Assembly: GCA_964532665.1 (NCBI GenBank)
Contig: CAZHMV010000002.1
Location: 14,510 to 78,509 of the forward strand
From: an uncultured Anaerolineales bacterium
GTDB taxonomy: Bacteria; Chloroflexota; Anaerolineae; Epilineales; JAANWY01
Direction: 5' to 3'
DNA length: 64,000 nt
The position numbers were made by a program, and so were the translations under genes. The first letter of the stretch is position 1. The number at the start of each line of letters is the position of its first letter. Below are positions 4,586 through 53,006 of this stretch, piece after piece. Under the pieces are notes generated by a model. The model was not told where the DNA came from, did not search any database, and saw nothing but the letters and a program-made list of their open reading frames with translations.

Positions 4586-5854
4586 TCACGTCCGATAGTC
4601 CGCATTGATCCGCACGTAGTCTACGGACAGGTCACACGTCCACACGGTCGCCTCGTCATCCCCAAGCCCCAGATCGATGATGATGTCGATGTCCTCGCCA
4701 GCCAAGATCTGCGCCGCAGCCGCCTCATCAACCCGAAAAGGCCGGCCATCCCTCACCAACTGTAGCGACCGCCCCCCGAGTTCCTCCGAGTTCCCCTGAG
4801 TTCCCCCCAGTTCCCCTCCGCCTTCGGCAAACCACAACCCAATCCGCTCCGGATCCACCTCCACCCCGCTGTACCCGACCGCCGCCAGCACGCGGCCCCA
4901 GTTGGCATCTTCGCCGTGCAAGGCGGTCTTGACCAGGGGCGAGCGGGCCACGGCCGTGGCGACCTGTTTGGCATCGCCGGCTGATGGCGCTCCGCGCACG
5001 TGGATCGTGATGAACTTAGTGGCTCCTTCGCCATCACGTACGATCTTCTGCGCCAGGGTGGTGGCGACGGCTGTCACGGCATCCCGGAACGCGCCGAATT
5101 TCTCGGAGTTGGGATGGTCGATGCTCACGCCGGATGCCCCGTTTGCCAGCAGCAGGACCGTGTCGTTGGTGCTGGTATCGCCATCGACGGTGATGCAGTT
5201 GAAGGAGCGGTCCACGGCATGGCGCAGGGCCTGATCCAGCAGGTCGGGGGGCACGGCGGCGTCGGTGGCCAGCACGGCCAGCATGGTGGCCATGTTGGGG
5301 TGGATCATGCCGGCCCCCTTGGCCAAGCCGGCCACCGTCACGTCGCCGGCGCTGAGCCAGACCCGCACGGCGGCTTCCTTGGGCACGGTGTCGGTGGTCA
5401 TGATGGCTCGCGCGGCGTCGTGCCCGCCGTCGGGGGCGAGGGTGCTTGCGGCATGGGTGATGCCGGCGGCGATCCTGGCCATGTCCAGCGGCTGCCCGAT
5501 CACACCGGTGGACATCACCCACACCTGATCCGGCTCACAGCCGGCGGCCTCGGCCGTGAGCTCCGCCATGCGTCGGGCATCCCGCAGGCCCTGGTCGCCA
5601 GTGACGGCGTTGGCGTTGCCGCTGTTGACGACCACGGCGCGGATCGCGGTGGGATTCCGCGCCAGCAGTGCCTGATCGTACAGCACAGGCGCCGCCTTCA
5701 CGCGGTTGGTGGTGAAAACCGCCGCGGCCGTGCACGGTCGCTCCGACACCAGCAGGGCCAGGTCCAGCGCATCGCCAGGCTTCAGGCCACAGTGGACGCC
5801 GGCGGCGCGGAAGCCGGCCACATCGGTGATCGATCCGTCCGGAGTTCTTTGCAT
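4586..5854 (-). CDS. argJ: bifunctional glutamate N-acetyltransferase / amino-acid acetyltransferase ArgJ; carries in-frame repeat insert near C-terminus
   Basis: conserved ArgJ core and C-terminus (...TVWTCDLSVDYVRINADYRT); likely start MQRTPDGSITDV at 5854 (track ORF runs to 6097 through a repeat); ~16-aa GGELGGTQGNSEELGG insertion. Confidence 0.9.
   Translation of the reverse strand: MQRTPDGSITDVAGFRAAGVHCGLKPGDALDLALLVSERPCTAAAVFTTNRVKAAPVLYDQALLARNPTAIRAVVVNSGNANAVTGDQGLRDARRMAELTAEAAGCEPDQVWVMSTGVIGQPLDMARIAAGITHAASTLAPDGGHDAARAIMTTDTVPKEAAVRVWLSAGDVTVAGLAKGAGMIHPNMATMLAVLATDAAVPPDLLDQALRHAVDRSFNCITVDGDTSTNDTVLLLANGASGVSIDHPNSEKFGAFRDAVTAVATTLAQKIVRDGEGATKFITIHVRGAPSAGDAKQVATAVARSPLVKTALHGEDANWGRVLAAVGYSGVEVDPERIGLWFAEGGGELGGTQGNSEELGGRSLQLVRDGRPFRVDEAAAAQILAGEDIDIIIDLGLGDDEATVWTCDLSVDYVRINADYRT
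4768..4830. repeat. GAGTTCC (GGAACTC) 10-bp-period tandem array inside argJ, in frame
   Basis: cgagttcctccgagttcccctgagttccccccagttcccc read directly; same unit as carB insert at 8724-8832 and intergenic 5995-6060. Confidence 0.8.
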
Positions 5855-7304: not shown

Positions 7305-7317
7305 TGCTTATACCTCC

Positions 7318-7417
7318 TTGTTAGTGATCAGTGAACAGTAATCAGTGAACAGTAATCAGAAATCGGTGGCCGAAGCAACTGATCACTGATCACTGATTAC
7401 TGATCACTGATCACTGG

Positions 7418-7425
<8 letters not shown>
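7318..7425. repeat. family-A heptamer-array hairpin (CAGTRAT x4-5 / ATYACTG x4-5) between carB stop and argG RBS
   Basis: gtgatcagtgaacagtaatcagtgaacagtaatcag ... ctgatcactgatcactgattactgatcactgatcactg; terminal cagtaa supplies the carB TAA stop. Confidence 0.85.
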
Positions 7426-10813
<3,388 letters not shown>

Positions 10814-10844: not shown

Positions 10845-10925
10845 AAATACAGTAAACAGTGATCAGTCATCAGTGATCAGAATATCACACTGATGACTGA
10901 TCACTGATAACTGGACACTGGTCAC
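10845..10925. repeat. family-A heptamer-array hairpin upstream of carB
   Basis: cagtgatcagtcatcagtgatcag aatatcaca ctgatgactgatcactgataactg. Confidence 0.85.
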
Positions 10926-10941
10926 TGAAAAGGGAGGCTTG

Positions 10942-11400
10942 ATGGATCCTCGAATGGCAGCCCGAGAATGGTTTCTGGATAAGCCGGGCAACAACAAATA
11001 CGACATTGAAGTTCACGTTCAGCGATCTTTCTGGCATAATGGTTTCGGTGAAGCCTTTTTCCGCTGTACGAAAGCGGATCCTCCGTACAAATGTGTCGGG
11101 TTCTGGCGTGGCCAGGAAATCGAGTTCGAGTGGGTGCCTCGCCAATGGCTGACCCTGTCTATGCAGGAATACGATGCCGGTGTTGTCGATGGTTTCAGCG
11201 GCGTCATGCACCTTAAACCCTCACTTCGGTACACTGTCGTCGCGTCGTCGAATAGTCACAACCCCGATGAGGGGGAGCCGGCTGAAGCCGAACCCACCAC
11301 TCAGGAGCAGTTTGTTGTCGAATGGCACGTTCGCGATGTCGAGCAGCGGCTGCGCGAACTGGCGGAGCAGGCCGGCGTGCGAGATGTGCAGCGGGTGTAG
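10942..11400 (+). CDS. hypothetical Trp-rich protein of atypical composition, inserted between carB and carA on the opposite strand
   Basis: 152 aa intact ORF; AGGGAGG RBS 4 nt upstream of ATG; A/T-rich third codon positions unlike flanking genes; no recognisable domain. Confidence 0.45.
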   Translation: MDPRMAAREWFLDKPGNNKYDIEVHVQRSFWHNGFGEAFFRCTKADPPYKCVGFWRGQEIEFEWVPRQWLTLSMQEYDAGVVDGFSGVMHLKPSLRYTVVASSNSHNPDEGEPAEAEPTTQEQFVVEWHVRDVEQRLRELAEQAGVRDVQRV

Positions 11401-11533: not shown

Positions 11534-12700
11534 TCATTCGTGGCCGGTGTCAGCCACGAATTCACTCGTTGCTTGCATCATCTCTGTAAACCGCCGAAAC
11601 AAATACATCGCATCGTGCGGCCCGGGCGATGCCTCCGGGTGGTACTGCACACCAAAAGCCGGCCACTCCCGATGCTGCAGCCCCTCCACCGTCCCGTCGT
11701 TCAGATTCACGTGCGTCACCTCGACACTGGCCGGCAGCGAATCCGCATCGACGGCGAAGCCGTGGTTGTGGGTGGTGATCTCCACCGCACCGGTGGCCAG
11801 CTGCTTCACCGGTTGATTCCCCCCCCGATGGCCGAACTTCAGCTTATAGGTCGATCCTCCCAGTGCCAACCCGAGAATCTGGTGCCCCAGGCAAATGCCG
11901 AAGATGGGCACCCGCCCAAGGAGTTGCCGAACGTTCCGCACGGCATAGTCAGCGGCGGCCGGATCGCCAGGACCGTTGGACAGGAACACGCCCTCGGGCC
12001 GTAGATCGAGAACGTCTTCAGCCCCGGTGTAGGCCGGCACCACCATCACCCGACAGCCGTGGTCGTGCAACAGGCGCAGGATGTTGTGCTTGATGCCGAA
12101 GTCGTACGCGACAACGCGGAACGTCGGAGCATCAGCAACGATTTCCTTCGCTTGACCCGGGAGCGCCGGACGTACTCCTCCACGCCAGGTGTACGCCTCC
12201 TTGCACGTGACCACTTCCACCAAATCCCGCCCGACCATGGCCGGCGCCTGCCGGGCTTTACGGACCAGGCTGCCGGAGTCGAGATCCACTGTTGATAGGA
12301 CGCCTCGCATAGCGCCTTCGGACCGAATGTGACGAACCAGGGCGCGGGTATCGACGTCGGTGATGCCCACCACGCCGTGCTCACGCATCCACGATTCCAG
12401 ATCGGACCAGGCGCGCCAGTTGCTGGGCCAGGCGTGATACTCGCGCACCACAAAGCCCTCCACCCAGGGCCGGCCCGATTCCAGGTCATCCGGGTTTACC
12501 CCCACGTTGCCGATGTGCGGGGTCGTCATGACCACGATCTGGCCGCAGTACGACGGATCGGTCAGAATCTCCTGGTAGCCGGTCATCGACGTGGTGAACA
12601 CCACCTCGCCGGCCCGCTCGCCAGTCGCCCCGAACGCCCGTCCTGCAAAAACGGTTCCATCTTCTAGAGCCAGCAAGGCCGGCTGCTGTAGTCCCCTCAT
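11534..12700 (-). CDS. carA: carbamoyl-phosphate synthase small subunit (glutamine amidotransferase)
   Basis: CPSase small-chain N-domain + class-I GATase (GICLGHQ..H..E); likely start [15 protein letters not shown] (track ORF runs upstream through repeat B2). Confidence 0.93.
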
Positions 12701-12702
12701 CT

Positions 12703-12740
12703 CACCGAATACGCAATACGCAATACGCAGTACGAACGCC
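12703..12740. repeat. family-B half element (ACGCAAT ACGCAAT ACGCAGT ACG), one arm only
   Basis: ctcaccgaatacgcaatacgcaatacgcagtacgaacgcc between GNAT stop and carA start. Confidence 0.7.
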
Positions 12741-13246
12741 CTATCCGGCCGCGACCGACATCGTCTGACCCACCAACTCGTCCGCTGCATCCTTCTTGTC
12801 GAGAACCATCGCCACCTCATCACACTCTGGAAACTTGGCGCAGTGCACACAATCCTTCCAGACTTTGCGAGGGAAGCGTTCCATCTCCGTCACCGCGAAA
12901 CCCAGCTTCTCGAAGAAGCCGACCGCCTTGGTCAGCGTGAACACGGTCGGAACCCTGATTTCCTCCGCATCGATCAGAAGCTGCTCCACGATGGTCCGGC
13001 CGACCCCGTTCCCCTGACGGCCAGGGCGGATCACCACCGACCGGACCTCGGCCAGCTCCGGCCCCAACACGACCAGCGCCCCACAGCCGGCGATCCCCTG
13101 TTCGTCCTCGACGACGACCCAACTGCGGATGCTCTCGCACACACTGTCCAGCGAGCGCGGCAGCACGTCGCCGGTTGTGCGGAACCAGTAATTGACCAAA
13201 TCGGTAATCGCTTGTGCGTCAGCCAATGTGGCCCTTCGCAACTTCA

Positions 13247-14486: not shown

Positions 14487-14572
14487 AAGTACTGCGTATT
14501 GCGTACTGCGTAGCGTGATCTTCGGCGCCACGTTTTACGCAATACGCAATACGCAGTAGGCAATAGGCTCAC
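14487..14572. repeat. family-B heptamer-array hairpin between argB stop and argD RBS
   Basis: agtactgcgtattgcgtactgcgtag cgtgatcttcggcgccacgtttt acgcaatacgcaatacgcagtagg. Confidence 0.85.
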
Positions 14573-15321
14573 CCTACGACAGCAGTTCCAGCACCACCCG
14601 CCAACCCCGCCAGATCGGTGATCCTCGCCTCCCGCACGCCGGCGGCAACCGCCGCCAGCGCCGAGCGCACTTTGGGGACCATGCCGTCGCGAATCGTGCC
14701 ATTTTCAATCAGCTCTTCGGCTTCCGCAGCCGACAACTGGCTGACGACCTGGCCATTGGCCAGAACGCCGGCCACGTTGGTCAGGAAGTACAGCGCGGAC
14801 GCGCCGAGCGCCCGCGCCACGCCCGTGGCGACGTGGTCAGCATTAACGTTGTAAGTCTGGCCGTCGAAACCCAGCGACACCGGCGACATTACCGGGACGA
14901 TACCCTGCTGTAGCAGCATCCGCAGCGGCTCCGGATCCACTTCGACGACACGCCCGACCCAGCCCAGGTCGCCGGCCGGGTGCACCATCTTCTCAACCCG
15001 CACCAGACCAAGATCGACGCCGCTGAGTCCGAGGGCAGGCACGCCGGCCATGGTCAGCCGCGCCACCAGCCGCTTGTTGACCCGCCCGCTCAGCACCATC
15101 TCGACAACCACCAGTCCGTCGTCGTCCGTGACGCGCAGCCCTTCGACGAAGCGCGGTTTCAGTCCCAGTGTCTTCTGGAGCCACGCAATCTCCTTGCCAC
15201 CGCCATGCACGATGACAACATGCTCCTCCATCCGCGCCACCGTTTCAGCCAGCGCGCAGAGAAACGCGTCATCACCTGCCTGACTTCCACCCACTTTAAG
15301 AACAATCGTCGGTTCATCCAT
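14569..15321 (-). CDS. argB: acetylglutamate kinase
   Basis: 250 aa; amino-acid kinase fold, LKVGGS N-terminal motif; GAGGA RBS. Confidence 0.93.
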   Translation of the reverse strand: MDEPTIVLKVGGSQAGDDAFLCALAETVARMEEHVVIVHGGGKEIAWLQKTLGLKPRFVEGLRVTDDDGLVVVEMVLSGRVNKRLVARLTMAGVPALGLSGVDLGLVRVEKMVHPAGDLGWVGRVVEVDPEPLRMLLQQGIVPVMSPVSLGFDGQTYNVNADHVATGVARALGASALYFLTNVAGVLANGQVVSQLSAAEAEELIENGTIRDGMVPKVRSALAAVAAGVREARITDLAGLAGGAGTAVVG

Positions 15322-18426: not shown

Positions 18427-19440
18427 TTATCGCGACTGATGATTCACCAATGGTAGATAAACCATATATGAGTATGCAACTTCAATGGTCTCCGACAGAC
18501 CGTTCACAACCCTCCAGTACGAGGGGGGGCCACATACAGTAGGATTACTTGATCTTAATCCTGTTACCTCACCTAAGATCGTGAGGGCAACCTTGGCTGT
18601 TCCGGGCTTTATTGTCCGAAAGCTGAACGTGAATGACGACTGGCCACCTGGCACCAATATCAGATGCTGCATGACGGGCCCCTGACCGGAAGGCTCTAGC
18701 ACAGGAGAGCCTCTGACGTAAAGAGTCAACTGGGGCATTCCAAAACAGAATCGTTCGCTGCTGTTGTAAATATAGGTCGTTACTTCAAGGGGTTCCCCCA
18801 TGCTAAGGGAATTCCTCGAAGGCACGACTTCCGCTCGGAAGGTGTTATTCTGGAGTGTTAGCGTTGGGGTTGGGGTTGGCGTATTTGTTGGAGTACGGGT
18901 GATTGTCGGAGTCACTGTACACGTAGCTCCAGGTGTGGGTACCCCAAAGTGCCGGGCGACGTTATTGGTCTCATCGAGTTCGGCCACATCGTTAAATACG
19001 TCTACTACAACCGCAGTGATGGTTCCCCTGCCGGACAAACAGGTTTCTTCATCTGCATCTAGACCACCGACTGTTTCGAGACGCCCCCCAATTCCATACA
19101 ATTGAACGTCGAACGCAGCTGCCGGGGCTTCTCCTCTGTTCAAAATGCACGCCCTATAGGAATATCCCCAAACACCTGCACAACCGTGTCCGGATCCGCC
19201 ATTATCTACACTGGATACCATCAAGTCGGGGAGTGGTACAGAGGGCATTGATGTCGCGGTGGCCGTTGACGTGAAAACTTGCGTTGTTTGGTCACTCAAC
19301 GCTGAGGCATATGTCCGATCTGGTTCTTCCCAGCTGTTTCCCCTCAGATACGCCGGATGGCTTGACGTTGCCGAAACCACATCGATCAGCATAATAATGC
19401 TGACCATGCTAGTGACCATCCAAGCTCGTATGTTTCTCAT
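18427..19440 (-). CDS. secreted protein with CARDB-like domain and Thr/Pro linker
   Basis: N-terminal signal/TM (MRNIRAWMVTSMVSIIMLIDVVSA); CARDB-like segment ...AFDVQLYGIGG...ETNNVA; PTPTPT linker; low GC. Confidence 0.6.
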   Translation of the reverse strand: MRNIRAWMVTSMVSIIMLIDVVSATSSHPAYLRGNSWEEPDRTYASALSDQTTQVFTSTATATSMPSVPLPDLMVSSVDNGGSGHGCAGVWGYSYRACILNRGEAPAAAFDVQLYGIGGRLETVGGLDADEETCLSGRGTITAVVVDVFNDVAELDETNNVARHFGVPTPGATCTVTPTITRTPTNTPTPTPTLTLQNNTFRAEVVPSRNSLSMGEPLEVTTYIYNSSERFCFGMPQLTLYVRGSPVLEPSGQGPVMQHLILVPGGQSSFTFSFRTIKPGTAKVALTILGEVTGLRSSNPTVCGPPSYWRVVNGLSETIEVAYSYMVYLPLVNHQSR

Positions 19441-19938
19441 GTCTTCTTTGCTTTCCGCTTCTGCTAGCTGATTGCCCATATGCTCTTAATCGCTACGACG
19501 GCATCGTCAAGCCTCCCACGGTCGTCACCCCCCTAGCTGGCATGGCCTAGATCGGCCAGTGCAACAGCCTTTATTCGCAGCCCGCCTGCTCCATGAGAGC
19601 CGCACGGTTGTGTGAAACCAGCCCCCACACATGCAAACGCCAACTCTGGACGGGAGACGTCCAGCCGCTGGCGTCGTGTTAAGAGTCTACATCTGTTGTA
19701 TTGTCTTGGCAAAACCAAGTACAGGGCCAAGATCATTCCAGTTCCCCCTTGCCAACCACGTAAGAGAAGTAAGATCAATGGTCTATCGGATTATACCAGA
19801 AGCAATCGGGGCGCGTCAACTGTTTTTTCAGAAGATACGATTCCGTTACCTTTGACCTGGATTGTAAAATCCAGGCCGAGGACAGTCGCGTAACGTAATG
19901 TTACGGTGTCGAAACCCGTCATTGTACCTGAAAGGTTA

Positions 19939-20051
19939 CTACTCAGCCACCCTCCCGCAGGTTGCGATGCGCAATGGTTTTGCATCCGCAAGCGGCCTTG
20001 AAGCAGCGATTCTGGGCCAGAAAGGCTCCAAACCTGCGGGAGGGTGAGTAG
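19939..20051. repeat. ~113-nt element with 22-nt terminal inverted stems (CTACTCAGCCACCCTCCCGCAGGTT ... AACCTGCGGGAGGGTGAGTAG), copy 1; flanked by direct repeats TACC(C)TGAAAGGT
   Basis: read directly; second copy at 49301-49414 with identical termini and diverged interior. Confidence 0.8.
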
Positions 20052-20631
20052 CTACCCTGAAAGGTCGGAAACGGGGCCTGGACCATTCCGATTTCCTGTC
20101 AGACTTGCGGCCGGCATAACATACGGCCGAATAAGTCCGTTATTATATGGAAGGGGGGGTCATCATCTTCAACTCCGTCATAGACTCGATAGAGACAGCC
20201 CAGCCGGCATGATGGTGTCGGCAAGGCTCTCACATTGTCGCCTGTCGCCGGCGTCGAGGTTCGCAACTCTGACTGCGTTTACACTCTTTTAACAGCCGGC
20301 TAAACACCACGTAACACTCGCGTGCGATGATGTCACCGCACCGGACGATGACCTGTAAGTACCTGCCAGGTTTCGGCGGGACGAAGCAGATGCTCTCGCC
20401 GCCACAGTCATTCACAGATTTTTCAAAGAATATTTAGCCAGCAGTGCTCGCGGCGTCTCAGTTCTGTGGTATACTATTGACTGCCGCGAATCGATCGTGT
20501 ATCTGCATTCGGCCGAGGCATGAGATTGCCTGCCCCTCGTGCGTTGACGTCTCCCTGTGGGGAGTGTTGATCGCTCTCTCCAGAGGCTCCTGCTGAGACG
20601 GCGAGTTTGTCCAGATGGAGGAGCAAAGCGC

Positions 20632-22623: not shown

Positions 22624-22682
22624 ACAGTGAGCGTCTTGCGTCTTGCGTCTTACGTCTTACGCAAGACGCAAGACGCAATTAT
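22624..22682. repeat. family-B heptamer-array hairpin (GCGTCTT x3 / AAGACGC x3) between proS stop and phosphatase start
   Basis: gcgtcttgcgtcttgcgtcttacgtcttacgcaagacgcaagacgcaatt. Confidence 0.85.
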
Positions 22683-24133
22683 CAATATGCCTTCGCAAAC
22701 ACCGCCTGCTCCTCGGCTTCCTCGCCGCAGAAGAGGCATTTGCCAGCCCCCTCGGGCTGCTCAAAGGGGACACAGCGGATGGTTGTGCCACCCAGTTCGG
22801 CTTTGGCGCGATCTTCGCACGTCCCGCTGCCGCACCACCAGGCGTAGGCGAACCCGTAGCCGCCGGCCTCGGGCACGACCTGGCGGAAGGCGTCCAACGT
22901 TTCAGGATAGAAGCTATTCTCGCGGAGAAATGCTTTGGCCTGCTCGAACAGACTGGCCTGGATCTCCTCCAGGAGTTCGGGGATGCGCGCCGGCACCTCG
23001 GCCATGGGAACGATGGATTTGCCTTCGCGGCCAGAGACATCGCGCCGGGCGATCACCACCTGGTCGTTCTCCACGTCACGTGGCCCCACATCGATGCGCA
23101 CCGGCACGCCGCGCATCTCCCAGTCGTTAAACTTGAAACCGGGACGCAAGCCCTCACGCTGATCCATTTCGACCCGCACGTCAGCCGGCAGGCTCCGGGC
23201 CACCCGCTCGGCAGCCGGCATGACGATCGCGCGCTCGTCGTCAGTCCGCCAGATGGGCACGAAAACAACCTGGATCGGGGCAACTCGCGGCGGCAGCCGC
23301 AGTCCCTGGTCGTCGCCGTGGACCATGATGATGGCACCGACGAAGCGGGTGCTCAGGCCCCAGCTCGTCTGATGGACGTACTGGAGTTCGTTGTTCTCAT
23401 CCAGGTACTGCGATTCAAAGGCGCGGGCGAAATTGTCGCCCAGATTGTGGCTCGTGCCGGCCTGGAGCGCCCGCATGTCCCGCATCATCGCCTCGATGGT
23501 GTAGGAGCGGACAGCGCCGGCGAACTTCTCGCTGTCGCTCTTGCGGCCGGGGACTACGGGCACCGCCGCGACGTTTTCGGCAAAATCCTGGTACACGCCC
23601 AGCATGCGGATGGCTTCCTCTTCGGCCTCCTGGGGCGTGGCATGGGCGGTATGACCTTCCTGCCACAGGAACTCCAGCGTGCGCAGGAAGGGTTTCGTCC
23701 GCTTCTCCCACCGCACCACGTTGCACCACTGATTGATCAGCAAGGGCAGATCACGGTATGACTGAATCCACTTCGCGAACATGGCGTTGATGATGGTCTC
23801 CGAGGTTGGCCGGACAACGTAGGGCTCCTCCAGCTCCTCGCCACCACCGATTGTGACCAGGGCCAGCTCAGGCGAAAACCCCTCGACGTGCTCGCTCTCT
23901 TTCTGGATGAAGCTATAGGGAATAAACAGCGGAAAATAGGCGTTCTTGTGCCCGGTGGCCTTGAAACGTTCATCCAAGGCCGCCTGGATATTCTCCCAAA
24001 TGGCATAGCCGTATGGTCGAATGACCATGGAGCCTTTCACCGGCGCGTAGTCGGCCAACTCGGCCTCGCGGATCACGTCGAGATACCACTGAGAAAAGTC
24101 CTCGCTCTGGGGCGTTACCCCTTTACTTGACAT
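22682..24133 (-). CDS. proS: proline--tRNA ligase, archaeal/eukaryotic-type (class II, no INS domain)
   Basis: ~483 aa; MSSKGVTPQSEDFSQWY start; C-terminal Zn-binding Cys cluster; type seen in Thermus/Deinococcus and Chloroflexi. Confidence 0.92.
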   Translation of the reverse strand: MSSKGVTPQSEDFSQWYLDVIREAELADYAPVKGSMVIRPYGYAIWENIQAALDERFKATGHKNAYFPLFIPYSFIQKESEHVEGFSPELALVTIGGGEELEEPYVVRPTSETIINAMFAKWIQSYRDLPLLINQWCNVVRWEKRTKPFLRTLEFLWQEGHTAHATPQEAEEEAIRMLGVYQDFAENVAAVPVVPGRKSDSEKFAGAVRSYTIEAMMRDMRALQAGTSHNLGDNFARAFESQYLDENNELQYVHQTSWGLSTRFVGAIIMVHGDDQGLRLPPRVAPIQVVFVPIWRTDDERAIVMPAAERVARSLPADVRVEMDQREGLRPGFKFNDWEMRGVPVRIDVGPRDVENDQVVIARRDVSGREGKSIVPMAEVPARIPELLEEIQASLFEQAKAFLRENSFYPETLDAFRQVVPEAGGYGFAYAWWCGSGTCEDRAKAELGGTTIRCVPFEQPEGAGKCLFCGEEAEEQAVFAKAY

Positions 24134-29225: not shown

Positions 29226-29258
29226 ACAGACCCTAAAGGTTTCGGAAACCTTTAGGGT
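29226..29258. repeat. 33-bp perfect palindrome AGACCCTAAAGGTTTC-G-GAAACCTTTAGGGTCT, copy 1
   Basis: identical copy at 34408-34440; the two bracket the first ABC operon. Confidence 0.9.
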
Positions 29259-29417
29259 CTACGCTAAGGGTTCGTCCAGGAACAGCTTCCGCTTTGGGGA
29301 AGTATCAAGGATCGCGTTCTTGTTCAGGCCCAGAACCCTTGAGGGTGGCTGAGCAGCGACCCCGGGACTTAGGATACCCTAAGGATGGTCTGGCGTCAAC
29401 TGCAATTCGCGTTGGAA

Positions 29418-34407: not shown

Positions 34408-34440
34408 AGACCCTAAAGGTTTCGGAAACCTTTAGGGTCT
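34408..34440. repeat. 33-bp perfect palindrome AGACCCTAAAGGTTTC-G-GAAACCTTTAGGGTCT, copy 2
   Basis: identical to copy 1; sits between the permease stop and the DUF3179 lipoprotein start. Confidence 0.9.
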
Positions 34441-40502: not shown

Positions 40503-40565
40503 GAAGAATCTAACATACTGCGTACTGCGTAGGAAAGTGGTCTGTGCAATACGCAATACGCAGTA
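40503..40565. repeat. family-B heptamer-array hairpin (ACTGCGT x2 / ACGCAAT ACGCAAT ACGCAGT)
   Basis: catactgcgtactgcgtaggaaagtggtctgtgcaatacgcaatacgcagtacgcaatg. Confidence 0.8.
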
Positions 40566-40586
40566 CGCAATGTTTGGGAGGAGACA

Positions 40587-41615: not shown

Positions 41616-41624
41616 AGGAACATT

Positions 41625-41708
41625 CAGTGAACAGTAACCAGTGATCAGTAATCAGTGATCAGTGAATAGGATTCCGATTACTGATCACTGATTACTGATT
41701 ACTGAACG
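41625..41708. repeat. family-A heptamer-array hairpin
   Basis: cagtgaacagtaaccagtgatcagtaatcagtgatcagtgaa taggattccg attactgatcactgattactgattactg. Confidence 0.85.
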
Positions 41709-41727
41709 GAAGGGAGTCATTGATCGA

Positions 41728-47590: not shown

Positions 47591-48133
47591 TTGTTTAATC
47601 AGCAAGACTACTCACCCCCTTCGCTACTGCGGTTGCTGGGGGTGATCGCTCTGGTCCTTTTGCTAAGCATCTATGGGCTCATCTCCCTGGACACGGGGGA
47701 CCTCTTATGGTTCTGGCCAAAGTTTGATACGCAGCCCACGGGTATGCTTATTCACTGTTACGGGCAAGACATCGCGCTTCAGCCGGACACGGTCGCCTTC
47801 TCCCGGATTGCTGCCCTGGTGAATCAAGGGTTATCCGGTGCCAAACGCTGGGACCCGCTTAGCCTTTCGGATGCGACCTACCAGGAATACCGGACAAGCC
47901 CGCGCATGATGACGCTGGAGTTGTACTACGAGCCTCCTATGCGCATACACTCGCAGTACAAGTTTTTTTCGGACATTGACACGCTGGTTGTTCCTCTGGA
48001 TGGCCGGCACGCCCGGTACAAAGTGGTCTTCGGTCGTACCCGGGGCATAACCGGGCCAGGGTCTTTTTCCCTTGCCACCGTACCATTGATCGCCGGCTAT
48101 TTGGAGCAAGAGGGTCTGTGTGTCAAGCCGTAA
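47591..48133 (+). CDS. hypothetical N-terminally anchored extracytoplasmic protein embedded in ABC operon 3
   Basis: 180 aa; one TM (LLRLLGVIALVLLLSIYGLISL) then ~150-aa domain; no known family. Confidence 0.5.
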   Translation: MFNQQDYSPPSLLRLLGVIALVLLLSIYGLISLDTGDLLWFWPKFDTQPTGMLIHCYGQDIALQPDTVAFSRIAALVNQGLSGAKRWDPLSLSDATYQEYRTSPRMMTLELYYEPPMRIHSQYKFFSDIDTLVVPLDGRHARYKVVFGRTRGITGPGSFSLATVPLIAGYLEQEGLCVKP

Positions 48134-48212
48134 GACCAGTAATCAGTAACCAGTGATCAGTGATCAGTGATCAGACAACTGATCACTGATCACTGTTCAC
48201 TGATTACTGAAA
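48134..48212. repeat. family-A heptamer-array hairpin
   Basis: cagtaatcagtaaccagtgatcagtgatcagtgatcag acaa ctgatcactgatcactgttcactgattactg. Confidence 0.85.
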
Positions 48213-48224
48213 AAGAGGGAGCCT

Positions 48225-49268
48225 GTGACTGAGAACACCACTAACGTATTGCTCGAGATCCGAGACCTCAAGACCTACTTCTACACCGAAGATGGTGTGG
48301 TGAAGGCGGTGGATGGTGTGAACCTGGTCGTCCATCGGGGCGAGACGCTGTGCCTGGTAGGCGAGTCGGGCTGTGGCAAGAGTGTGACCTTCCTGTCGGT
48401 TATGCGCCTGGTTGGCCAGCCCGGCCGTATCGTCGGCGGCGAGGTCATCTTTGACGGAGAGAACTTGCTGGAGTTGCCCGAGATCGACATGAGCCACATC
48501 CGGGGCAACCGGATGTCCATGATTTTTCAACAGCCAGTAAGCTGCCTGAACCCTGTGTTCACGGTTGGGGACCAGATCGCCGAGGTATTCGAGATTCACC
48601 AGGGACTCAGCAAAGAAGAAGCGCAGAAACGGGCTGTCCAGATGCTGCATACCGTCGGCATCCCCGAGCCGGAGCGTCGAGCTGAGTCCTTCCCCCACGA
48701 ACTCTCAGGGGGAATGGCCCAGCGGGTGATGATCGCCATGGCCCTGGCCGCCAACGCCGAACTCCTCATCGCTGACGAACCAACGACGGCTCTGGATGTC
48801 ACCATCCAGGCACAGATCCTCGATCTGATGCGCGAACTGAAAGAGCGAATCGGGACCTCCATCGTTTTCATCACGCATGACCTGGGAGTGGTGGCCGAGA
48901 TGGCCGACGCGGTAGCCGTCATGTATGCCGGCCATATTGTGGAGGACGCCGATGTTGACACGATCTTCTCTCATCCCATGCACCCCTACACGCAGGCGCT
49001 TCTGAGATCGATCCCTGTCCTGGGCATGATCAAGGAGGAACTGGACGTTATTCCGGGCTCCGTTCCAAATCTGATCAACCTGCCCCCGGGCTGTCACTTC
49101 GCGCCCCGCTGCCGCGCCCGGGTGGAGCACGGGCTGGATATCTGCACAGAAGTGGCCCCACAACTACTGCCAGTGGCCCGAGGGCATACCGTCCGCTGCT
49201 GGCTTTACGAAAGCGCCCCGGAGCATGGGCATCGGGCACCTATGCAGGATGAAGTGGTGATGGCATAG
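48225..49268 (+). CDS. ABC transporter ATP-binding protein (OppD-like), operon 3
   Basis: Walker [17 protein letters not shown]. Confidence 0.92.
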   Translation: MTENTTNVLLEIRDLKTYFYTEDGVVKAVDGVNLVVHRGETLCLVGESGCGKSVTFLSVMRLVGQPGRIVGGEVIFDGENLLELPEIDMSHIRGNRMSMIFQQPVSCLNPVFTVGDQIAEVFEIHQGLSKEEAQKRAVQMLHTVGIPEPERRAESFPHELSGGMAQRVMIAMALAANAELLIADEPTTALDVTIQAQILDLMRELKERIGTSIVFITHDLGVVAEMADAVAVMYAGHIVEDADVDTIFSHPMHPYTQALLRSIPVLGMIKEELDVIPGSVPNLINLPPGCHFAPRCRARVEHGLDICTEVAPQLLPVARGHTVRCWLYESAPEHGHRAPMQDEVVMA

Positions 49269-49300
49269 CTGGCGTTACATCTTTCGACAGCAGACTCGAA

Positions 49301-49414
49301 CTACTCAGCCACCCTCCCGCAGGTTACGATGACCGGTGCTTCTGACCGTGAGGCAAGGTCTTTGGCAGTGGTTTTTTGGCGGGAGAAGGTTCAAACCTGC
49401 GGGAGGGTGAGTGG
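49301..49414. repeat. ~113-nt element with 22-nt terminal inverted stems, copy 2; abuts the start of the last ABC ATPase gene
   Basis: ctactcagccaccctcccgcaggtt...aacctgcgggagggtgagtgg; flanked by imperfect direct repeat GCAGACTCGAA / GCAGAATCAA. Confidence 0.8.
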
Positions 49415-49443
49415 TCACGCAGAATCAATTATCGGGAGCGACG

Positions 49444-50430
49444 ATGACACAGAACGGATACAATCTGCTCGAGGTCAAGAATCTGGTTAAGTACTTCCCC
49501 GTACGGGGCGGCTTTCTCCAACGCATTCAAGCCTGGGTAAAGGCTGTGGACGACGTGAGCTTCACGATTCGACACGGCGAGACCTTTGGGTTGGTAGGAG
49601 AGAGCGGATGTGGCAAGACCACCATCGGGCGCACCATTCTGAGGCTCATCCCTGCCACCGCCGGCGAGGTGTACTTCGATGGGCAGGATGTCTTCGCAGT
49701 GGGCGGGCGACAACTGAAAGACCTGCGCCGGGATATGCAGATTATTTTCCAGGATCCCTTCTCGTCACTGGACCCACGCATGCCCGTCGGTGATATCATC
49801 GCTGAGGGATTACTGGTCCACGGTGTTGGTGACAGAAAAGAGCGCCTGCGAATTGTTCAGGATAGCCTGCTGAAGGTAGGATTGCATCCAGAGCACGCCC
49901 GGCGCTTCCCCCATGAGTTCTCCGGCGGCCAGCGTCAGCGTATCGGCATCGCGCGGGCGTTAGCCTTGCGCCCCAAGTTCATCGTCTGCGACGAGCCCGT
50001 CTCGGCCCTGGACGTGTCCATTCAGTCACAGGTTCTCAACCTGCTGCGGGAACTGCAGCGGGAACTGGGGCTGACCTATCTGTTCATCGCTCATAATCTG
50101 AGCGTGGTGGAGCACATCAGCGACCGGGTTGGTGTGATGTACCTGGGCAAGATGGTGGAGGTGACCGATCGTGAGACGCTGTATGCGAATCCCTTGCATC
50201 CTTACACCAAGGCCCTGATGTCAGCTATCCCCATCCCGGACCCACATCTCAAACGGGAAAGGATCATCCTGAAGGGGGATGTACCCAGCCCCCTGAACCC
50301 ACCGTCGGGCTGTCGGTTCCACCCGCGTTGCCCGGTTGCTATTGATGTTTGCAACAAGATCGAGCCTGAGCTTCGGAATGTGGGCGCCGGCGAGACCAAG
50401 CACTGGGTGGCATGTCACCTCGTCACCTGA
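49444..50430 (+). CDS. ABC transporter ATP-binding protein (OppF-like), operon 3
   Basis: likely start ATG 49444 ([11 protein letters not shown]) with GGGAG RBS; track GTG start 49411 lies inside the repeat element. Confidence 0.9.
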
Positions 50431-52879: not shown

Positions 52880-52892
52880 TGATTCAGATCCT

Positions 52893-53006
52893 CCTCTGAC
52901 CAGTGATCAGTAATCAGTGATCAGTAATCAGTATTCGGCGATCAGTAATTGGCATCTGCTCACTGATTACTGATCACTGGATACCGATCACTGATCACTG
53001 GTTGCC
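52893..53006. repeat. family-A heptamer-array hairpin; right arm provides the TGA stop of the NYN gene
   Basis: ccagtgatcagtaatcagtgatcagtaatcagtattcggcgatcagtaattggcatctgctcactgattactgatcactggataccgatcactgatcactgg. Confidence 0.85.

Follow-up and report, generated by a model that had tools for sequence, protein, structure and literature searches.

The window, i.e. the whole 64-kb stretch of DNA that was analysed, carries two copies of a short repeat with conserved ends and a variable core. Such a pattern could be produced by a non-autonomous transposable element or by a small structured RNA family, and both readings had been put forward in the initial annotation, with preference for the first. 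The questions raised by this locus are which of the two readings applies, which enzyme may move the repeats if they are mobile, and what they do at the sites where they reside.

Anatomy of the repeats

Both copies are retrieved with a family profile in nhmmer, and the same search finds no third copy in the 64-kb window. Each is 121 bp long; the length of ~113 nt given initially fell four bases short at either end. The features of the two copies, in window coordinates, are the following.

19927–19934, no strand: copy 1, left target-site duplication, CCTGAAAG, matching 20056–20063 at 8/8 positions
19935–20055, plus strand: MITE copy 1, 121 bp, with the long arm at the 5′ end on the plus strand
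19935–19948, plus strand: copy 1, left outer terminal inverted repeat, GTTACTACTCAGCC, ISBst12-type, matching GTAACTGCTCAGCC / GTGACTACTCAGCA
19949–19963, plus strand: copy 1, 5′ inner arm, ACCCTCCCGCAGGTT, pairing with 20031–20045 in the predicted fold
20031–20045, plus strand: copy 1, 3′ inner arm, AACCTGCGGGAGGGT
20043–20055, minus strand: copy 1, right outer terminal inverted repeat, reverse complement GTAGCTACTCACC
20056–20063, no strand: copy 1, right target-site duplication, CCTGAAAG, perfect
49290–49297, no strand: copy 2, left target-site duplication, GCAGACTC, matching 49419–49426 at 7/8 positions
49298–49418, plus strand: MITE copy 2, 121 bp, profile match, in gene-sense orientation
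49311–49325, plus strand: copy 2, 5′ inner arm, occurrence of the 15-mer
49394–49408, plus strand: copy 2, 3′ inner arm, occurrence of the 15-mer
49419–49426, no strand: copy 2, right target-site duplication, GCAGAATC

Copy 1 matches the profile over its full length and has the ends GTTAC...GCTAC, while the left end of copy 2, GAACTAC, lacks one base relative to GTAAC; the terminal pattern of the window copies is 5′-GT(T/A)AC...G(C/T)(T/C)AC-3′. From the outside inwards, the element consists of outer inverted repeats of ~14 bp (of the GTAACTGCTCAGCC type), a 15-bp inner inverted repeat (ACCCTCCCGCAGGTT) and a fast-diverging interior of ~65 nt. The near-identical termini are present as they had originally been quoted, and the window contains exactly four occurrences of the 15-mer ACCCTCCCGCAGGTT, one per arm per copy, against 0.19 expected from dinucleotide-preserving shuffles. 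The interiors, which had been described as diverged yet alignable, are identical in 44 of the 72 aligned columns, and none of 1000 shuffles scores as high; judged from this alignment the two interiors are truly homologous, though diverged. The 121-bp elements contain spurious overlapping ORFs only, none of which has a Pfam match.

On either strand, each copy is predicted to fold into one long hairpin, with energies of −45 to −59 kcal/mol and z-scores of −4.2 to −5.5. The predicted hairpin comprises an outer stem, a 3-nt bulge (GCC) at the 5′ side and a 15-bp inner stem that encloses the ~65-nt interior. Base pairing is retained in 89% of the outer-helix cells over 28 copies.

Target-site duplications and distribution of the family

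A scan with the pattern CCTCCCGCAGG-N57-87-CCTGCGGGAGG, using one genome per species, retrieves at least 112 loci (L numbers below designate these loci and other contigs examined), of which at least 101 belong to at least 36 assemblies of Anaerolineae, Thermoflexales or other Chloroflexota; two assemblies contain at least 12 loci each. Among the matches listed, 63 family members could be oriented in ~0.75 Mb of fetched loci. Many of the Chloroflexota copies share the outer termini of the window copies, as exemplified by L012 (GTGACTACTCAGCCTACCCTCCCGCAGGTT...AACCTGCGGGAGGGTGAGTAGTCAC). The matches listed from outside the Chloroflexota are nine sphingomonad loci, one Latescibacterota MAG and one alphaproteobacterial MAG. 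The sphingomonad matches were rejected as family members, since they represent a different palindromic repeat that shares the 11-mer of the search pattern. This Sphingomonadales repeat is ~95–105 nt long and has the form CCCCTCCCGCAGGCGGGAGGGG ... CCCCTCCCGCCTGCGGGAGGGG (L023, L052, L054, L058, L065, L077, L079, L086 and L100).

The element register, running from GTAAC to GTTAC with an 8-bp duplication outside it, was set by eye and subsequently fixed in the nhmmer family profile. In this fixed register the flanking octamers agree at 8/8 positions in 13 of the 25 full-length copies and at 7/8 positions in a further six, a level of agreement (seven or more) that is reached in 0 of 600 cross-pairings. 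With a looser test that allows variable offsets, 11/18 copies have exactly matching flanks of 7 nt or more, and the cross-paired controls do not exceed 6. The duplicated octamers vary between copies and show no obvious consensus. The target-site duplication is thus a fixed 8 bp, occurring in the same register in unrelated copies of other genomes. The direct repeats of ~10 bp that had been noticed on either side of the window copies do exist; their true length is 8 bp, and the longer repeats of 10–13 bp had taken in the outermost two or three bases of the element. Nor are the window copies the only ones, as the initial annotation had allowed for: copies are numerous, and in 19 of 25 the flanks agree at seven or more of the eight positions, so that the proposal of a mobile element withstands the objection.

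The 121-bp elements are below ~300 bp and devoid of a transposase ORF, they possess terminal inverted repeats and a duplication of fixed length, and they are dispersed in multiple copies, all of which are properties of MITEs. The repeats in the window are two MITE copies of a widespread Anaerolineae/Chloroflexota family. No published description of the 121-bp family was found in a literature search, and a search with the arm sequence gave nothing relevant. The short arm has 0 matches in the viral contigs scanned. A metagenome scan for the arm variant specific to the window yields 11 stretches, ten of which are further MITE copies, the remaining one (L122) having no right arm nearby; none of the 11 is a full-length element, and all derive from samples other than those that yielded the window. 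Contig L037 terminates in a possible IS end, for which a metagenome scan retrieved 0 matches, and a plasmid megablast with the copy-2 region returned ABC-gene fragments only. A different arrangement is present in an Anaerolineae MAG, where L008:2226-2771 is a tandem array of five head-to-tail 114-bp units with one core hairpin each.

Bacterial MITEs are known as Correia in Neisseria, RUP in Streptococcus pneumoniae, ERIC/IRU in enterobacteria and Nezha in cyanobacteria, and they can be co-transcribed with adjacent genes. The window elements resemble them in being non-coding, ~100–150 bp in length and multi-copy, in their terminal inverted repeats and long hairpin, in their duplications, and in their intergenic location in either orientation. 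Correia and RUP produce a TA duplication and are linked to other IS families. In contrast to Correia, RUP, ERIC and Nezha, the window elements are associated with a different transposase family and reside in a different host phylum, the Chloroflexota.

Relationship to the ISBst12 group of IS66

The hallmarks of the IS66 family are ends that start with GTAA and an 8-bp duplication (PMC11946415). The window elements have GTAA-type ends and the 8-bp duplication, and they code for no transposase. As they contain no ORF, they are not IS66-family insertion sequences themselves but non-autonomous derivatives or hitch-hikers. Within this family, transposition of the ISBst12 group was shown by experiment only recently (PMC12898284, 2026). 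ISDge4 from Deinococcus geothermalis, a single-ORF member of this group, has the inverted repeats GTGACTACTCAGCA / GTAACTGCTCAGCA, together with a direct repeat of 8 bp (PMC12898284). The end consensus of the MITE family, GTAACTGCTCAGCC, equals the published repeats of ISDge4; it was also compared with GTAACTGCTCAGCCTG, GTAACTGCTCAGCT and GTAACTATTCAGCC, which are the ends of the elements described below.

Plasmid pHTA426 of Geobacillus kaustophilus contains a 485-aa ORF with DDE_Tnp_IS66 (E = 1.9e-64) and zf-IS66 domains. The corresponding element measures 1635 bp, has the ends GTAACTATTCAGCC / GTATCTATTCAGCC and is flanked by the duplication AACTCGTC/AACTCGTC. Metagenomic homologues of its transposase, with 44–45% identity, lie in elements of 1565–1598 bp. 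Among the metagenomic ISBst12-type elements one has the ends GTTACTGCTCAG, another, in L139, carries GTAACTGCTCAGCCTG at either end, a third, with the ends GTAACTATTCAG, is flanked by the duplication ATAAAAAG / ATAAAAAG in L142, and the element in L147 has GTAACTGCTCAGCT at either end and the duplication CTTTGCTG/CTTTGCTG. Ends identical to those of the MITE are found in L133, L139 and L147. The relatives of P0187 include 120 close metagenomic transposases. In L136 (~444-527), the left end of an ISBst12-type element, consisting of the inverted repeat and a small adjacent hairpin (42 bp together), is tandemly duplicated.

The similarity between the MITE and the ISBst12 group, represented by ISDge4, the pHTA426 element and P0187/P0257, comprises the same inverted repeats, GT(A/G)ACT(A/G)(C/T)TCAGC, identical over 13–15 nt, as well as the 8-bp target-site duplication and a TGA triplet in the right end. 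The right inverted repeat (GCTGAGCAGTTAC) of ISBst12-group elements (L134-L145 and L147) contains the TGA with which the transposase ORF terminates, leaving only 8 nt of element after the ORF. The MITE has retained this TGA, which in copy 1 is located in the right outer repeat. Whereas ISBst12-group elements are 1.47–1.64 kb long and encode a DDE_Tnp_IS66 transposase of 449–505 aa, the window elements are 121 bp long without an ORF.

Neither the window nor the 112 listed loci (~0.75 Mb) contain an IS66-type transposase gene according to tblastn with the pHTA426 transposase (E ≤ 1) and a motif scan. Similarly, no transposases are found beside solo-arm or solo-end matches in L034, L046, L047 and L059, where the neighbours are ordinary genes. 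Full-length elements whose ends are identical to those of the MITE were obtained from Geobacillus, Deinococcus and unassigned metagenome contigs, and an Anaerolineae origin is not demonstrable for them.

Three other small elements have ISBst12-type ends and perfect 8-bp duplications: L016:789-909, L016:~1088-1185 and L076:7271-7398. Their duplications are ATGAATTG, TGTCATGC and ACGTCGGC, respectively; the interiors are unrelated and lack the inner hairpin. From the shared ends of these elements it would follow that the ISBst12 type of transposase has mobilised several MITE families in these organisms. In two of the three, the interior abounds in short repeats like CACAGAG or CACAAAG.

The 121-bp repeats are, therefore, very probably non-coding MITEs with IS66/ISBst12-type ends that are mobilised in trans by an ISBst12-type transposase, where mobilisation in trans in this organism is suggested by the identity of the ends and the length of the duplication. 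An ISBst12-group DDE transposase, encoded elsewhere, would bind both element ends and either cut the element out or copy it. Insertion would proceed through a staggered 8-bp cut, repair of which would generate the 8-bp duplication.

The inner hairpin core

The inner arms are less readily understood than the outer ends. Unlike the window elements, the full-length ISBst12-group elements analysed do not have the inner 15-bp inverted repeat, and the core as a whole is absent from five full-length ISBst12-type elements. A simple origin as an internally deleted IS would consequently not explain the inner arms. Moreover, the same arms occur in other element classes, with a spacing of 89–96 nt in 98/106 instances. 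In these classes the outer inverted repeats are unrelated and the duplications measure 9 or 10 bp, and the interiors show no similarity beyond shuffles to those of the elements with ISBst12-type ends (class A). They are listed here with the caveat that each assignment is based on two to four copies read by eye.

Class B, MITE-like: outer end TAGGGCTTTCTCAAAGT, 10-bp duplication
Class C, MITE-like: outer end TGGCTACCTGACAGTTT, 9-bp duplication
Class D, MITE-like: outer end GGGTGCGTTTCA, 9–10-bp duplication
Class E, MITE-like: outer end (C/T)TCACTA(C/G)CCGACA, 9-bp duplication

Other-ended elements with the same arms and spacing are located in L004, L092, L026, L050, L028, L091, L101, L081 and L110, and short-loop derivatives that keep the arms occur as well.

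These observations raise the possibility that the inner core (arms CCTCCCGCAGGTT / AACCTGCGGGAGG, ~91 nt) constitutes a separate unit, either a REPIN-like or otherwise mobile palindrome or a selected module. Such a unit would have come to lie between the ends of several different transposons, the ISBst12 ends being just its current vehicle. REPINs are REP doublets that form hairpins; they are mobilised by RAYT without target-site duplication and occur with a RAYT gene. The core has a REPIN-like layout, in which two inverted, conserved short sequences are separated by a less conserved spacer of near-fixed length and form a long hairpin. In contrast to REPINs, the window elements combine 8-bp duplications with inverted repeats of the DDE type, and neither a RAYT-like gene nor any other recurrent neighbour is present beside the elements or cores in the loci examined. 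On these grounds the window elements do not belong to the REP/REPIN class. Against an independent core also speaks that a 'naked' core bounded by a recognisable duplication or ends belonging to it was not found, and that decayed arms exist, for example at L078:3852 and L034:180. In addition, the conservation of the arms is overstated, because the search pattern required them. A separate unit of this kind is considered unlikely, and it is likewise doubtful that the ~91-nt core is an independent module which, in Anaerolineae, has been packaged between the ends of at least five different types of transposon whose duplications are 8, 9 and 10 bp long.

The hairpin at the RNA level

The very stable predicted hairpins, the conserved ends with a variable core and some two-sided pair changes in the outer helix are also what a small structured RNA family would display, be it an sRNA or a cis-regulatory element, in which the closing helix and variable core were selected at the RNA level. 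The comparative data do not agree with such a role. There is no match in Rfam at the gathering thresholds, and at E ≤ 10 only microRNA-like hairpin noise appears. RNAalifold applied to 28 copies yields the invariant inner stem only, with a covariation term of 0.03 and no structure in the interior. When a hand-drawn two-helix structure is imposed, the double changes in the outer helix all fall in one sub-family (GTAACTGCCTACCC), and position 7 of the outer helix is unpaired in 9/28 copies, reflecting the same A/G difference as that between the two ends of ISDge4. Between co-directional genes the element is present in the sense orientation in 13 and in the antisense orientation in 12 copies, as counted from crude gene calls, which amounts to no strand bias. 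Copy-specific 8-bp flanking duplications, finally, are not expected of an RNA gene. The repeats thus correspond neither to a described RNA family nor to one defined by covariation on one strand, and the RNA reading offered as an alternative in the initial annotation is very improbable.

An intrinsic transcription terminator or attenuator whose hairpin simply recurs in intergenic positions would likewise have a GC-rich stem, and copy 2 indeed separates two genes of an operon; among the related short hairpins with the same stem, some, such as that at L026:6988, have a T-run behind it. The window copies, however, have no T-run after the stem. A terminator scan finds nothing at the closing stem, its one match being a 6-pair stem inside the interior, and shuffles give as many. 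Class-A copies are commoner between divergent genes (11) than between convergent genes (3), again according to crude gene calls. Since this reading also leaves the duplications and the IS-type ends unaccounted for, and the elements do not have the properties of intrinsic terminators, it is regarded as extremely improbable. An integron attC site is ruled out by the target-site duplications and the DDE-type ends.

Insertion sites and genomic context

The MITE interpretation is further supported by the surroundings of copy 2, which, as described before, lies between the last two ABC ATPase genes. It is flanked by an oppD-like gene, with its stop at 49268, and the start of an oppF-like gene, and is in the gene-sense orientation. 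Close relatives that share the gene order and have an 88–90% identical OppF possess an oppD-oppF spacer of 24 or 33 bp, compared with 176 bp here. The element is absent from the syntenic spacers of L117, L118, L120 and L121, which are diverged such that the exact empty site is not visible. Copy 2 is therefore polymorphic for presence or absence at an orthologous site. Together with the recurrent 8-bp duplication and the IS-type ends, the absence of this insertion in relatives bears out the earlier view of a non-autonomous transposable element. Within the window's own population, copy 2 is identical in three JGI metagenome contigs. Two independent short-read assemblies of this organism in public records are interrupted within the arms of copy 1 and copy 2 (L146 ends at window position 19961 and L116 starts near 49386), as expected for a repeat in short-read assemblies. 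The OppF-like protein is recorded in JGI metagenomes, and its closest named relatives are 'Chloroflexi' / 'Anaerolineae bacterium' MAG proteins, which places the window in the Chloroflexota.

The position of copy 2 bears directly on the start of the oppF-like gene. The GTG at 49411, listed as a start codon, lies inside copy 2 (49298–49418), as had been pointed out. The signals for an alternative start are located beyond the element:

49434–49446, plus strand: RBS GGGAG and ATG 49444 of the downstream ATPase gene, outside the element

Four public contigs are annotated with the 328-aa product that begins at ATG 49444, and this start is conserved in orthologues; a product starting from GTG 49411 is not on record in public gene calls. 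The true start of the oppF-like gene is thus almost certainly ATG 49444, not GTG 49411, as judged from these gene records, the orthologues and the preceding GGGAG, which would place copy 2 clear of coding sequence. The insertion adds a very stable predicted hairpin (−55 kcal/mol) to the presumed polycistronic oppD-oppF RNA, and conceivably this hairpin may have a regulatory effect on the transcript.

Copy 1 has a different setting:

~1-kb intergenic stretch containing copy 1: between a CARDB-domain gene (18427–19479, minus strand) and the region that leads to a BioY gene

Copy 1 is located ~115 nt past a site that resembles a promoter for the CARDB-domain gene. The resemblance of the reconstituted empty site to one half of a 33-bp palindrome, to which attention had been drawn, is weak: an equal score is reached by 0.4% of random pieces of the window (12 of 3000), and the other half is absent. 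The near-perfect 33-bp palindrome itself, AGACCCTAAAGGTTTCGGAAACCTTTAGGGTCT, is present in two copies, at window positions 29228–29260 and 34408–34440.

Several further repeats were observed in the window. Arrays of a 7-nt repeat in inverted arrangement (CAGTGAT / ATCACTG and variants) form long imperfect intergenic palindromes at 7313–7433, 10849–10944, 41617–41714, 48129–48226 and 52885–53003, and one such array lies directly upstream of the oppD-like gene. Short tandem repeats of (GCAATAC)n and its complement occur at 12695–12743, 14525–14576, 22630–22686 and 40546–40571, and (GAACTCGGGG)n is found with its complement ~3.9 kb away (8716–8795 and 4773–4814).

Implications

The repeats represent an ordinary kind of selfish DNA, with the conserved inner hairpin as an unexplained feature. 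Their analysis adds a MITE family with a link to the ISBst12 group of IS66 to the record of a phylum of which the mobile DNA has been very poorly described. For the window itself, the annotation can be corrected, as GTG 49411 falls within a transposon and the gene begins, almost certainly, at ATG 49444; the element also accounts for the enlarged spacer in the oligopeptide-transporter operon. The family constitutes a marker of strain-level variation and accounts for assembly breaks in Anaerolineae metagenome bins. If the inner core were truly an independent module, it would be a second-order mobile element that colonises transposons or, alternatively, a hairpin with a selected function, such as protein binding, RNA processing or insulation, that was acquired by several MITE lineages. 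Should it be confirmed that MITE classes share an inner hairpin, this would pose a small but real puzzle concerning the origin of MITEs and the exchange of modules between them.
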